Source: a virus. From it: 64,000 nt of DNA. Numbering within the stretch: the stretch's first letter is position 1; each line of letters starts with the position of its first letter. Of this stretch, positions 625-64,000 are shown in pieces. The DNA is taken from positions 4,947 through 68,946 of the IMG/VR virus record IMGVR_UViG_3300035703_000076; one strand, written 5' to 3'. Made by a program: the position numbers and the translations under genes. The notes under the pieces are model-generated. The model saw only the letters and a list, made by a program, of their open reading frames with translations, was not told the origin of the DNA and did not search any database.

Positions 625-674
625 ATTTTGTTGGATATGTGCAAGTTTATGGCACATGTCTGGTAGTTATAGGA
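625..674 (+). other. attI-like leader/recombination site of cassette array A
   Basis: 34/44 nt identical to 61424-61467, ending ATGTCTGGTAGTT; directly precedes the first cassette (GTT at 666). Confidence 0.7.
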
Positions 675-1579: not shown

Positions 1580-1712
1580 GCCACTAACACTCGCTATAAG
1601 TAATGGCGGGTTCAGTGGTAATTGTTGTGTTGTGCTTTCTATTGTCATTTGTTGTATTTTGATAGTGAGTAGTTCCAATACCGCCACTACTCATAGCGGA
1701 AACGTTATAGGG
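1580..1712 (+). repeat. attC-like hairpin A3
   Basis: GCCACTAAC-ACT-CGCTATAAGTAATGGCGG / CCGCCACTACTCATAGCG-GAAAC-GTT. Confidence 0.85.
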
Positions 1713-1742
1713 CATTTAAACTGTTTGGCACATAATCTTAAA

Positions 1743-1952
1743 TTACTCAATCAATAAATTATATTCGGATAGGTACTCTCGTATCTTCTCCCTGCTATCT
1801 TGATAGGCAATATACATATCTTCTGGCAGAGTCTCATACTTGAGTTTGCCTCGTAAATACTGGTCATATTCAAATATAGCCGCAGCATACTTACTGCCAT
1901 TAATTGCTAATTGTGCTTCTTCAATCGTGTCAAATTCTATGACTATTTTCAT
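1743..1952 (-). CDS. hypothetical phage protein (69 aa)
   Basis: ORF in the tightly packed minus-strand run. Confidence 0.75.
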   Translation of the reverse strand: MKIVIEFDTIEEAQLAINGSKYAAAIFEYDQYLRGKLKYETLPEDMYIAYQDSREKIREYLSEYNLLIE

Positions 1953-4920: not shown

Positions 4921-5132
4921 TACGCAATTACGTTTTGATTGAAAACAACATGACTCCTGTCAAGTTCTGGATTGCCTCGCTCGTTTACTAAACAGGCTTC
5001 AAGTTCAAGTTTAATATCTTCAAGGTTTACAGGTTCAACTTTTCGGATATAAAATGTTTCTTTGTCGCCTTGGTTCGCAAGGTCGTAAAATATCTCTACT
5101 TGAAATGTTGCTAATGTTTTTAGGCTTTCCAT
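4920..5132 (-). CDS. hypothetical protein
   Basis: Stop overlaps the next gene's start. Confidence 0.65.
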   Translation of the reverse strand: MESLKTLATFQVEIFYDLANQGDKETFYIRKVEPVNLEDIKLELEACLVNERGNPELDRSHVVFNQNVIA

Positions 5133-5137
5133 ATTAT

Positions 5138-5530
5138 TTAGTTCTCGTCAAAGAAATCTGATAATGATGGTTTCGAGTACCAATTTGAAATAAATCCATT
5201 TTCTCCAATATGCAAATCGATATAATCGCCATATTTTCCTGGAATTAATTCATTTGGAACATAGTCATTTTCAATAGAAGATATGGTATTTCCTTCTGAA
5301 TCTAAAAGGAAATATGAACCTTCGTCACAAACCTTCATGCTTAAATGACCTTTTTGACCTTTTGGCCAATCCAAAACTCGCCCTTCGTCAATATTAATAA
5401 TAGCAGACCACGTATTTCCACTTCTTAATGGGAAATCATTTGGTATATCCTCTTCTCCATATCTTACAGCTACGTCAACTTTGACCATTACAATTTCAAC
5501 CTCTTTTTCCGCTTTAATTATTGCTTTCAT
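5138..5530 (-). CDS. conserved hypothetical phage protein (KVCDEG.Y, YVP, YGDYI motifs)
   Basis: ORF, operon packing. Confidence 0.75.
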   Translation of the reverse strand: MKAIIKAEKEVEIVMVKVDVAVRYGEEDIPNDFPLRSGNTWSAIINIDEGRVLDWPKGQKGHLSMKVCDEGSYFLLDSEGNTISSIENDYVPNELIPGKYGDYIDLHIGENGFISNWYSKPSLSDFFDEN

Positions 5531-5553: not shown

Positions 5554-5865
5554 TTACTTTTCCCTGTTGTCGTATCTTACAACTGCTGCGCTTTCCCTTT
5601 CACCATCCCCTAATTCAGCATCAACGGCATTTTGCAATTCTTTGATAAACTCGTTCGGCTTGGCTAATTCAAAGCCTGTTATCTCGTGGCTTGCTGCGTA
5701 CCTTGCCCCTGTAATATCATCGACGTAGCCTTCATTGGTTGAAACTGATACTTCAAGGTCAACCACTACCGAAATGGTTATGGTGTCATCTTTTCTTTGC
5801 GGGGTTCGGCCAAATGTGGCCTGACTTGCTGCGGCAATTGCAGCCTTGATTTGTTCTGATTTCAT
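5554..5865 (-). CDS. hypothetical protein, first gene after an early promoter
   Basis: ORF about 21 nt downstream of the predicted +1. Confidence 0.7.
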   Translation of the reverse strand: MKSEQIKAAIAAASQATFGRTPQRKDDTITISVVVDLEVSVSTNEGYVDDITGARYAASHEITGFELAKPNEFIKELQNAVDAELGDGERESAAVVRYDNREK

Positions 5866-8492: not shown

Positions 8493-9185
8493 TTAAAGTA
8501 AATTTTCTTGTTTGTAATAGTTTATTAGATACCACACATTTTGAGGTGTAAACTCCTTCCCATCGGTTGTTATGTAGCCGCTTCGTTTGTAGCCTAAGCG
8601 ATTAAGGTTGTAGCTAATTTCCTTTAGAAGATAGTCGGGGTTGGCGGCAATATACATTTTGATGTACTCGTATATCTGAACTTTGTTGTTATCCTCCCAT
8701 ACGGCTCTTTTCCTTGCTATTCCTCCATTAACTGCGGCTTCATAGCTTAGGTTTTCAGGTTTTCCAAGTTTCACTCCATTGGATTTCTTTACTTGCAATG
8801 CAGCCTTTGTTCGTTTGCTTATCAGTTCCCTTTCGTGCTGTGCCATCGTTGCGAAGATGCCAAGGGTTAGGGTGTTGAGGTCGGGCAAATCTAAACAAAC
8901 AAAGTTAACTGATTCCTTCAAAGTAAACAAAAAAGATACATTTCTACTTAGTCTGTCTAACTTAGCTATGAGCAAAGTTGCTTCTTTTTGTTTACATTCC
9001 TTTATAGCTTGTTCAAGTTGAGGTCGCTTGTCCTTCTTACCCGATTCAACTTCTGTAAACTCCTGCAATATACGGCCATTATTTTTGGCGTATAAGTTAA
9101 CAGCTTGCTTTTGTGCTTCCAAACCTAAGCCTGATTCGCCTTGTCGCTTTGTTGATACTCGGTAGTATGCAATGTAGGTTTTCAT
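8493..9185 (-). CDS. serine recombinase (resolvase/invertase family)
   Basis: YYRVST..Q, G.K..RP.L and KLDRLSRN catalytic motifs; ERELIS.RTK helix E. Confidence 0.92.
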   Translation of the reverse strand: MKTYIAYYRVSTKRQGESGLGLEAQKQAVNLYAKNNGRILQEFTEVESGKKDKRPQLEQAIKECKQKEATLLIAKLDRLSRNVSFLFTLKESVNFVCLDLPDLNTLTLGIFATMAQHERELISKRTKAALQVKKSNGVKLGKPENLSYEAAVNGGIARKRAVWEDNNKVQIYEYIKMYIAANPDYLLKEISYNLNRLGYKRSGYITTDGKEFTPQNVWYLINYYKQENLL

Positions 9186-61122: not shown

Positions 61123-61413
61123 TTATTTCACTTCAAATTTAACTTTCTTTCCATGTTCAAACATCGTGTTTTGCTTAAACCTACATTTGCCCGATTTTCC
61201 GTTGCAAGGTTGGTATGCAATACAGGATTTTCCGCATGCCTCGTGTTCAAATATTTCCTCTGCTGCCCTACACCAAAAATACTTGTCGTTATTTTCTGGA
61301 ACCGCTTCAAATAGTTCAATTTCGGTCAATCCTTGCTCTTTGGCATCGGTTAAATGATAGTCCAATGTGTAGCACATTTCCGATAGTTCTGTAAGAAAGT
61401 AGTATTTAGGCAT
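61123..61413 (-). CDS. Cys-rich hypothetical phage protein
   Basis: FWC...CG..C..Y.P.NG..G.CR motif. Confidence 0.75.
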   Translation of the reverse strand: MPKYYFLTELSEMCYTLDYHLTDAKEQGLTEIELFEAVPENNDKYFWCRAAEEIFEHEACGKSCIAYQPCNGKSGKCRFKQNTMFEHGKKVKFEVK

Positions 61414-61423
61414 GGTTTATTTG

Positions 61424-61474
61424 ATTTTGTTAGGTATGTGCCATAAAGTGGCTTATGTCTGGTAGTTACCTGCC
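61424..61474 (+). other. attI-like leader/recombination site of cassette array B
   Basis: 34/44 nt identical to 625-668; GTT at 61465. Confidence 0.7.
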
Positions 61475-61738
61475 ATTTTCCCAACGACCGATAACCCAAT
61501 CAGGAACAATTCCATCATTAGTTCTATTGGCTAAATCTTCATCCCAACTGAAATTCACGACTATCTTTTCATCTGAACTCCAATCCCTACCAAAATCTTC
61601 AATAGTCAATTCAGCATCGTATTTCGCCAATAATGCTTTTAACTCGTTTTGGAATTGTTCTACCTTATCCTTACCCGACAAAAAAACGGCAGGTAACACG
61701 GGTTTGGCAAAATTGCCGTTTTGTTCTTCTATTAACAT
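61466..61738 (-). CDS. cassette B1 gene (90 aa)
   Basis: Starts in the hairpin loop; its stop TAA coincides with the GTTA core. Confidence 0.75.
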   Translation of the reverse strand: MLIEEQNGNFAKPVLPAVFLSGKDKVEQFQNELKALLAKYDAELTIEDFGRDWSSDEKIVVNFSWDEDLANRTNDGIVPDWVIGRWENGR

Positions 61739-61819
61739 CAGTTCTTAATTTTAAACATTTGTACTTCTATTTAGCTTTTCGGTTCGGCAACTTCGCCAAA
61801 CCCGATACCGTTAGGCACA
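61688..61819 (+). repeat. attC-like hairpin B1
   Basis: GGCAGGTAAC-A-CGGGTTTGGCAAAATTGCCG / CGGCAACTTCGCCAAACCCG-ATACC-GTT. Confidence 0.85.
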
Positions 61820-62083
61820 ATTAAGCAACATACCTTCGAGTTCAGAAATAACCACAATCCATTGCTCACTTTCAATGTTCATTGCTTCATCCATTTGTCC
61901 TTTATCTGCAAAATCTTTACACAAATTAGCTAAATCAATCGCTGCGATTAAATTGTCTTTATTTGATAACATCCCTGTGTATGGGTTGTGGTCTGATGAT
62001 TTCAACATCAATTCTACTATTTCTTTCGTTTTCATAATTTTAACTGTGCCTAACAGCGTATATGTGCAATACGCTTTCAGCAT
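61811..62083 (-). CDS. cassette B2 gene (90 aa; alternative start 62035)
   Basis: Its stop TAA coincides with the GTTA core. Confidence 0.75.
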   Translation of the reverse strand: MLKAYCTYTLLGTVKIMKTKEIVELMLKSSDHNPYTGMLSNKDNLIAAIDLANLCKDFADKGQMDEAMNIESEQWIVVISELEGMLLNCA

Positions 62084-62143
62084 TTGTTGTTAATAATTAA
62101 GTTTATCGTATGCGTACTGCACATATACGCAAACCCGTTACCT
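62045..62143 (+). repeat. attC-like hairpin B2
   Basis: TGTGCCTAAC-A-GCGTATATGTGCAATACGC / GCGTACTGCACATATACGC-AAACCC-GTT. Confidence 0.85.
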
Positions 62144-62386
62144 AATCTTCACCATCACCCTATCCCCTACTTGCCTTACAAACTGCCCTTTGATGATAAG
62201 GACTGAATCTTTTCCGACCTTACCGAAGTTGTAGCCGATTTGGATTTGATGGTTAATGATTGGCTTTGACTGCGAGTGGTTCTTGGTGGGAAGAGTTCCT
62301 ATCCATAGCAAAATCAAACAGGCAATTGCAATGTAAATGCCTAACAAAAGTTTATAAGAACTATCCATCCTACACCTCCTTTTCAA
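62138..62386 (-). CDS. small membrane-anchored protein (start probably MDSS)
   Basis: N-terminal TM. Confidence 0.65.
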   Translation of the reverse strand: MKRRCRMDSSYKLLLGIYIAIACLILLWIGTLPTKNHSQSKPIINHQIQIGYNFGKVGKDSVLIIKGQFVRQVGDRVMVKIR

Positions 62387-63201: not shown

Positions 63202-64000
63202 CTAAATATTAAAGAATTTACAAAATTCAACGTTACCATATTGGCTCTTGGTTTTTTCGGCCATTTCCAAAATAGTGAACTTTTGTGGCTTAATTCCAGC
63301 CGATTCGATAAACGATTTTACGCCTTGCTGACAAGCGCCTGTAATCACTCGGTAAACCTCAATACATTTATCGTAGGGCAGTTTTTCGTTTACGTCCATG
63401 CCTTTAAAATCGTCCTTATTCCTTTCAGCAATTTTGTAAATCAAATCCGCCTTAGCATCCTTAATTGTGTCTCCATGTGCATATTTGCCGTTTCCATCAG
63501 TTACAAGAAAATACTCGTTTTTTTTGCCAACGTCTTTAAGTCTCCAAACATTACCTTTTTTCGATATTACCTCCGAAAATTTACCATCGGCCAAGACAAA
63601 ATCGCCATTTCCTTTGCCCCATTTCATAAATGGGATATTTTGATTTTGTAAAATTGGCAATTGTGCTTTTACTTTATCAGGTAGCGTGCAGCCTCTGAGG
63701 TAGAGAGAGCCGCCGATAGTAGTAGGTAGTACCAAGTTATCAGGTAGCGTGCAGTCTTCGAGGTAGAGATGGCCGCCGATAGTAGTAGGTAGTACCAAGT
63801 TATCAGGTAGCGTGCAGTCTTCGAGGTAGAGATAGCCGCCGATAGTAGTAGGTAGTACCAAGTTATCAGGTAGCGTGCAGCCTCTGAGGTAGAGAGAGCC
63901 GCCGATAGTAGTAGGTAGTACCAAGTTATCAGGTAGCGTGCAGCCTCTGAGGTAGAGATAGCCGCCGATAGTAGTAGGTAGTACCAAGTTATCAGGTAGC
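63202..64000 (-). CDS. LRR-like repeat protein (5' end outside the window)
   Basis: 21-aa repeats LPDNLVLPTTIGGxLYLxxCT; C-terminal AHG.T...A..DL..K / YR.ITGAC..G...F domain. Confidence 0.85.
   Translation of the reverse strand, partial: LPDNLVLPTTIGGYLYLRGCTLPDNLVLPTTIGGSLYLRGCTLPDNLVLPTTIGGYLYLEDCTLPDNLVLPTTIGGHLYLEDCTLPDNLVLPTTIGGSLYLRGCTLPDKVKAQLPILQNQNIPFMKWGKGNGDFVLADGKFSEVISKKGNVWRLKDVGKKNEYFLVTDGNGKYAHGDTIKDAKADLIYKIAERNKDDFKGMDVNEKLPYDKCIEVYRVITGACQQGVKSFIESAGIKPQKFTILEMAEKTKSQYGNVEFCKFFNI
63674..64000. repeat. 63-bp tandem repeat, at least 5 copies
   Basis: Units start at 63674, 63737, 63800, 63863, 63926 and 63989. Confidence 0.95.

Follow-up and report, generated by a model that had tools for sequence, protein, structure and literature searches.

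Duplicated leader of two cassette arrays in a phage genome as a probable orphan attI-type site of an integron-like system

Two short arrays of small genes in the phage genome analyzed here are each headed by nearly the same leader, and the question raised by this locus is whether the leader is a dedicated site through which gene cassettes enter, as a preliminary description had proposed. The stretch analyzed, hereafter the window, comprises 64,000 nucleotides and corresponds to bases 4947–68,946 of the 68,946-bp IMG/VR record IMGVR_UViG_3300035703_000076. Minus-strand genes occupy 1–14.9 kb and 61.1–64 kb of the window, with plus-strand structural genes between them. The large terminase has a distant likeness to the terminases of crAss-like and Azobacteroides phages, which suggests a host among the Bacteroidota. 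A minus-strand ORF contains a long, ~63-nt tandem repeat (window 63650–64000 and genome 1–440). Because the 93-bp direct terminal repeat (DTR) of the record sits within this tandem repeat, the record is best read as a circular assembly, and the DTR call may be an assembly effect. Searches of the whole phage genome gave no match to the tyrosine recombinase family PF00589 and no Y1 (IS200-type) transposase. The sole recombinase found in the genome is a small serine recombinase with an N-terminal resolvase domain (8493–9185, minus strand), which is also present in the sister phage L004.

The first leader heads array 1 at 616–668 on the plus strand, with a box (ATTTTGTTGG) at 625–634 and the crossover point G|TT at 666|667. 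The second heads array 2 at 61415–61467, also on the plus strand, with its box (ATTTTGTTAG) at 61424–61433 and the crossover point at 61465|61466. The preliminary description had reported that 625–668 and 61424–61467 are identical at 34 of 44 positions without gaps, that the last 13 nt are identical, and that both copies end exactly at the G|TT opening the first cassette of their array; each of these statements was reproduced, coordinates included. The likeness reaches 9 nt further to the left (40/53 for 616–668 versus 61415–61467), beyond which it falls to background (0 in the next 3 nt on the left and 9/32 on the right). Elsewhere in the window, with both strands considered, ungapped 44-mer matches reach at most 27/44, and the 13-mer ATGTCTGGTAGTT was found in two places only, which are the two leaders. 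A shuffle control for this 13-mer at ≤2 mismatches was uninformative (mean 1.52; 45 of 100 shuffles gave ≥2 matches), and the weight therefore rests on exact identity and position.

An imperfect palindrome with wobble pairs favoring the plus strand had also been put forward in support of an entry site. This holds for leader 1, in which arms GGATATGTGC/GCACATGTCT, within 616–668, form a 10-bp stem with two G-T pairs on the plus strand (−5.8 versus −4.3 kcal/mol, z about −2), but not for leader 2, whose minimum-energy fold keeps only a 4-bp stem. Comparison of the two copies identified no compensatory changes that preserve the stem. The palindrome and its wobble pairs are thus a weak argument for an entry site.

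The cassettes behind the leaders are delimited by G|TT junctions, four in array 1 (666, 962, 1321, and 1704) and three in array 2 (61465, 61810, and 62137); their coordinates are given on the plus strand, and their ORFs are encoded on the minus strand. In array 1, cassette 1 (667–962, starting TTATAGGA) carries an ORF at 677–850 and a hairpin site at 870–965 with the left box TCCTATAAC at 870–878, cassette 2 (963–1321, starting TTATGTGCC) an ORF at 975–1256 and a hairpin site at 1194–1324, and cassette 3 (1322–1704, starting TTAGTGGC) an ORF at 1334–1549 and a hairpin site at 1580–1707. In array 2, cassette 1 (61466–61810, starting TTACCTGCC) carries an ORF at 61466–61738 and a hairpin site at 61688–61813, and cassette 2 (61811–62137, starting TTAGGCACA) an ORF at 61811–62083 and a hairpin site at 62045–62140. 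The ORF of array 1 cassette 2 has a lipoprotein-like signal peptide at its N-terminus, its start codon lies inside its own hairpin loop, and its coding sequence crosses the left box. The five cassette ORFs and their neighbors had no Pfam or PHROGs match, and a comparison of the hairpin sites with Rfam returned only microRNA-family noise below threshold.

At the far end of array 2, the distal junction G|TTA (62137–62140) doubles as the stop codon of a conserved gene (62138–62386), and the same boundary is a G|TT junction in contigs of the metagenome runs X2 and X3. Array 1 is followed, after its last G|TT, by a distal stub (1705–1743, plus strand; TTATAGGGCATTT...TGGCACATAAT...). The 14-nt start of the stub (GTTATAGGGCATTT) is the same as that of a full cassette in L004, and the stub holds the partner-box-like TGGCACATAAT, so that it may be read either as the displaced right half of an entry site or as a truncated cassette.

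All five cassettes in the window start with G|TTA followed by a variable run, and in all five the reverse complement of the first 9–10 nt of the cassette stands just before its own far-end hairpin. Each hairpin site is composed of a variable box ending in TAAC, 1–5 nt, a 17–20-bp stem, a loop, a 5–9-nt unpaired run (e.g., AAAAC), and G|TTA. Long-stem sites of this kind (17–20 bp) are limited in the 68,946-bp genome to these five, all on one strand, and shuffled sequences yielded short stems only. The minus strand gives the better fold at all five sites because the stem mismatches are A-C on the plus strand, and this is the sense strand of the cassette ORFs; in each cassette, the longest ORF points toward the head of the array. 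A hairpin-guided single-strand transposon was considered and dropped, as there is no Y1 transposase and the element start pairs with its own subterminal box.

The leader differs from these sites in having neither a long stem nor an AAAAC-type bulge. It might still be the remnant of a mini-cassette or hairpin site, in which the arms of the palindrome (TATGTGCC/GGCACAT) would be a decayed cassette start and its partner box. The sequence GTTATGTGCC is a frequent cassette start, the stub of array 1 contains TGGCACATAAT, and an array of the phage LR756502.1, described below, includes ~68-nt units between two G|TT junctions. Nevertheless, the same leader heads two arrays, and it carries a box, ATTTTGTTRG, that goes with recombinase-adjacent sites and not with hairpin sites, which leaves the remnant reading with very little probability.

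A dedicated entry site should form a fixed boundary with changing cassettes behind it, and the preliminary description had suggested a motif search to test whether cassette starts follow the leader in phages and hosts. One true relative was found, namely the sister phage L004, whose leader is identical to that of the window over its last 37 nt; no further true relative was found in IMG/VR, where a scan with TGGCNNATGTCTGGTAGTT recovered only L004 and a chance match in a GC-rich coding region (L003). The long leader pattern gave 0 matches in metagenome contigs. Of the runs X2 to X20, small shares were covered, and stretches lacking contig cover there carry no weight. The match of an unrelated metagenome contig from run X3 to the window covers a 96-aa gene and the leader as far as 61468, past which the sequences differ. 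In total, the leader is seen with four different first cassettes, all attached at the same G|TT: two in the window (GTTATAGGA and GTTACCTGCC), one in L004 (GTTAGCACCA), and one in the X3 contig (GTTAGTGGCAAT). Three of them stand behind near-identical copies of leader 2 (window, L004, and X3 contig), and the gene flanking this copy in L004 is 92% identical to that of the window, which implies turnover at the junction since these phages diverged. No cassette is common to the arrays carrying leader 2, and head entry and exchange anywhere in the array are therefore not distinguished for this leader.

The surroundings of leader 1 have a different history. The block 616–1743, which holds leader 1 and its cassettes, is missing in the close relatives L007 and L008, and leader 1 begins exactly at the left edge of the block; it therefore came or went as part of a block with non-G|TT ends. 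Insertion of the block at a G|TT of the empty site was rejected because the block's junctions are incompatible with it. A 13-nt unit (GGATAGTTAATGT), repeated three times in tandem (573–615), separates leader 1 from the next start codon on the minus strand. The same repeats are kept in the array-less relatives L007 and L008, which indicates that they belong to the phage, and they may be operator or iteron repeats.

Leader 2 directly abuts the start codon (61411–61413, minus strand) of the 96-aa gene (61123–61413, minus strand). The 51 nt from this start codon to the G of the array 2 junction is the usual length of the recombinase-adjacent sites described below, and the gene stands where complete elements have the recombinase gene; it shows no likeness to recombinase N-termini, and in the relative L006 it is present without the leader. 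This position raises the alternative that the leader is a regulatory element, i.e., the 5′ untranslated region or the promoter-operator of the minus-strand gene downstream, which the cassettes merely abut. The left part of leader 2 does resemble the region just upstream of recombinase start codons, and the palindrome could bind a repressor. However, leader 1 is not beside a start codon, as the three 13-nt repeats intervene, the likeness between the leaders stops exactly at G|TT, and on the minus strand the stem is not followed by a terminator-like run of T. A purely regulatory element is accordingly improbable, although a regulatory role and an attI role are not mutually exclusive; in classical integrons, the attI region overlaps promoters.

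If the leader is an entry site, a recombinase gene would be expected beside its counterparts, and in relatives that carry such a gene, 30–87 nt separate its start codon from the array head. A Xer-like tyrosine recombinase of 267–279 aa is encoded in five of the 46 array-bearing records, and in all five its start codon and the G|TT that opens an array are 36–67 nt apart; the gene and the cassette ORFs share a strand. Ten of the 12 near-complete array-bearing records have no tyrosine recombinase. IMG/VR contains at least 253 relatives of the recombinase, from which the best 80 loci plus 50 were examined. Among the 58 loci with enough upstream sequence, a first cassette was detected within 90 nt in 41 (38 of these at 30–87 nt); the distances have modes at 36, 43, and 51–52 nt, and the sites end in TATATAATA|GTTA. 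The 50 loci of a second clade have the same layout, with sites of 49–53 nt ending in TACATATAGTA|GTTA.

The recombinase obtained its best scores with XerA-type and Xer models, all of them below the cut-off (e.g., 174–205 bits against a cut-off of 220 for the XerA-type NCBIfam model NF040815). The integron-integrase model TIGR02249 gave 133–166 bits against a cut-off of 265, with the match in two stretches. In comparison to IntI4 (2a3v), ~43 residues are missing where 2a3v has residues 180–247 (the IntI insertion), whereas the alignment with the XerA structure 5hxy is continuous. In bacterial genomes, 451 relatives were identified and the family is common in Bacteroidota, but cassettes were detected at only three of 64 bacterial loci, and the attI motif occurs only beside the closest homologs, e.g., in Flavobacterium urumqiense and Mesonia aquimarina.

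The small serine recombinase of the window phage might instead act on the leader and the hairpin sites, since it is the only recombinase in the genome and the sister phage has the same protein. Proteins of the resolvase family, however, are encoded in only two of the 46 array-bearing records, and the architecture of the sites is of the tyrosine-recombinase, integron type; of the alternatives weighed here, this one is the hardest to credit.

The cultured Polaribacter Freya phages, which encode a recombinase 36% identical to the Xer-like family, provide a natural experiment on the recombinase-adjacent sites. Freya_1 has an empty site 46 nt from the recombinase start codon. In Freya_10, 4942 extra bases lie between that G|TT and a hairpin site ending in G|TT, after which the old right flank resumes. 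Freya_10 also equals Freya_9 plus one ~305-nt cassette at the head, and Freya_6 likewise exceeds Freya_5 by one head cassette, a different one. The additions are located at the recombinase-adjacent G|TT with flanks that are 99.4–100% identical, and every breakpoint examined is at G|TT. These sequence comparisons show cassette entry at the recombinase-adjacent site. Across L148, L149, and L280–L285 (Freya_1, 5, 6, 8, 9, and 10), all from one host, the cassette differences beside the integrase range from 0 to 4.9 kb. In the passages of the publication that concern it, the Freya integrase is taken as a sign of a temperate life style, and the passages searched do not mention integrons or cassettes (PMC8776804).

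How closely the leaders resemble these recombinase-adjacent attI sites depends on the feature compared. The box ATTTTGTTRG occurs four times in the phage genome, and two of these occurrences are the leaders, where it stands 31 nt before G|TT. It is present in four of 35 attI regions of clade 2, always 28 nt before G|TT, and its relaxed form ATTTTRTTRG in seven of 35 and two of 33 attI regions; in the Freya site, counted by hand on the sequence, the relaxed form stands at 28 nt. The background is 23 occurrences in 2.61 Mb. The leaders also have the TA|GTTA end, but their box, at 31 nt before the G, has a spacing 3 nt longer than 28, and in place of the usual core (TATATAATA or TACATATAGTA before GTTA) they have CACATGTCTGGTA. 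A search of the phage genome by nhmmer with two profiles built from recombinase-adjacent attI regions did not recover the leaders. An anchored position weight matrix gave them 7.1 and −0.2 bits, with true sites at a median of 22.1, although they ranked 3 and 17 of 593. In global alignments to the attI regions, leader 2 performed better than shuffled sequences (3/300) and leader 1 did not (69/300). The overall sequence similarity of the leader to known attI regions is weak.

The degenerate core and the longer spacing are what may be expected of a fossil, i.e., a leader that descended from attI and is no longer used, heading frozen arrays that move between phages by ordinary homologous recombination. 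The lack of a recombinase in the genome and the presence or absence of the 616–1743 block as one unit in close relatives are in line with such a leader. On the other hand, the three different first cassettes behind near-identical copies of leader 2 argue against frozen arrays, and we regard the fossil as unlikely, though less so than the other alternatives. Positional, comparative, and motif evidence together support the proposal that the leader is a dedicated cassette-entry site, the attI-type head of an array. The expectation that other arrays would begin with this leader failed in its literal form, as most arrays have different leaders; we read these as lineage-specific variants of one site class. 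The leader is thus probably an attI-type site that forms the fixed, double-stranded end where cassettes dock in an integron-like array. Since the window phage has no tyrosine recombinase, both copies would be orphan sites, either served in trans or relict.

The cassettes behind the leaders belong to a mobile pool that is widespread among phages. The hairpin of array 1 cassette 3 matches the 642-kb uncultured phage LR756502.1 (L009), which has an array of the same build, and it is a member of a hairpin family whose two-arm pattern was found at 57 sites in 53 IMG/VR contigs. At the 53 usable sites of this family, picked by the hairpin alone, the reverse complement of the left box was found upstream in 44, compared to two of 53 for a reversed-box control. 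The left box travels with the hairpin, and the right box, with which the next cassette starts, is freely variable. The longest arrays have eight consecutive cassettes. Of 99 distinct cassettes, 95 have their longest ORF directed toward the head of the array. The window cassette 61466–61810 recurs internally in the array of an unrelated contig (L044) with 87% amino acid identity, and the homology starts at G|TT.

Several further arrangements were observed in these arrays. In LR756502.1, two near-identical units of ~68 nt (5032–5102 and 5425–5497) are located between G|TT junctions within the array. Both share the GTAG|TT end of the window leader, and a cassette comes next in each case; these units may be copies of an entry site embedded in the array. 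Two arrays under a shared leader of their own also occur in other phage contigs (L029 at 123 and 4952; L067 at 5651–5705 and L062 at 7562). Second copies of an attI head are present in G045, where one copy adjoins the recombinase gene and the other lies elsewhere, and in L029, at another locus. The last cassette of L004 (9138–9400) has the left box and half of the hairpin, without the second arm and the terminal G|TT, and an ORF crosses the box.

A mechanism that accommodates these features would resemble that of integrons. The ~270-aa Xer-like recombinase, encoded beside the site in complete elements, would join circular cassettes at G|TT. Each cassette carries one long hairpin site, which folds best on the ORF-sense strand, and in the circular form the left box of the hairpin would pair with the first 9–10 nt of the same cassette. 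The recombinase would bind the double-stranded head and the folded cassette hairpin, with strand exchange at G|TT, and replication would resolve the product as in integrons; both the exchange on folded single strands and the replicative resolution are proposed by analogy, while the comparisons establish the junctions, the strand asymmetry, and, in Freya, entry at the head. Any roles of the box and the palindrome of the leader are putative. With each insertion at the head, the cassettes already present would move further from the leader, and so would the right half that the site originally had. As the window phage has no tyrosine recombinase, cassette turnover in it either needs an enzyme in trans or has stopped. 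A trans-acting enzyme could be supplied by a co-infecting phage, a prophage, or the host.

Integrons are the textbook gene-capture device of bacteria, and their enzyme is defined by an extra domain that is thought to be necessary for acting on folded attC sites. The arrays described here agree with integron attI sites (classes 1 to 4 and chromosomal) in having a fixed site at the array head with the crossover in G|TT, which adjoins the recombinase gene in complete relatives, receives new cassettes at the first position, and has its old right half displaced. The cassettes bounded by G|TT, the inverted-repeat site, and the outer boxes that pair in the circle are likewise shared with integrons, as observed in all five window cassettes, at 44 of 53 sites of the hairpin family, and in the Freya indels. 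An attI site between the integrase gene and the first cassette is found in relatives (all five records and 41 of 58 loci) but not in the window; there the position of the integrase gene is taken by a 96-aa gene at leader 2 and by 13-nt repeats at leader 1, and the site is present in two copies. In contrast to integrons, no integrase with an IntI-specific domain stands beside the arrays, the partner enzyme being Xer-like and without the IntI insertion. Moreover, the cassette ORFs read toward the site (95/99; 5/5 in the window) and not away from it under a promoter at the head, and the recombinase gene, which shares their strand, is downstream of the cassettes. The hairpin sites also depart from attC sites in their unpaired spacer of ~1 nt, compared to 5–6 nt, and in their stems of 17–20 bp.

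Xer recombinases are also known to act on folded single-stranded sites in integrating elements that use XerCD. Such elements share with the present system the short Xer-type enzyme, hairpin-folded sites with a duplex box, and the asymmetry of the sites; here, however, the enzyme is encoded by the element and works on a cassette array rather than inserting a single element at the chromosome dimer-resolution site. Archaeal integrons have reportedly been described by Ghaly et al. The recombinase resembles archaeal XerA in its best family match and in its continuous alignment with 5hxy, but its score is below the family cut-off, the hosts are those of Bacteroidota phages, and the arrays adjoin the gene. 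The window arrays, with three and two attC-type sites and no integron integrase nearby, correspond to the definition of CALINs (≥2 such sites). CALINs without a neighboring integrase have been reported from virulent phages, one of them a phage of Polaribacter, and in tests with IntI1 their attC sites recombined at G|TTRRRY; as far as the account of these CALINs goes in the parts compared, neither a dedicated leader nor a Xer-like recombinase is named (Qi et al., 2023; PMC9892861). A literature search covering main texts returned no description of Xer-like recombinases with cassette arrays in phages.

Taken together, an integron-like gene-capture system that appears to have gone undescribed is probably widespread in Bacteroidota phages. 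The broader proposition, to which we give about an even chance, is that these phages run their own integron-like capture with a short Xer-type recombinase and reversed cassettes, and that orphan sites such as the two leaders draw on a shared pool through a co-resident phage or prophage that bears the recombinase. The cassette logic of integrons appears here in phages whose enzyme is plainly Xer-like and whose cassettes have the inverse layout, and the system bears on the origin of integron integrases from Xer recombinases. The cultured Freya phages provide a system in which the entire mechanism could be examined at the bench. Phages as different in size as 69 kb and 642 kb share the same cassettes, and the leader indicates that a phage lacking the enzyme can still keep entry sites, even in duplicate. 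Such enzyme-less entry sites would make small accessory genes exchangeable between unrelated phages.
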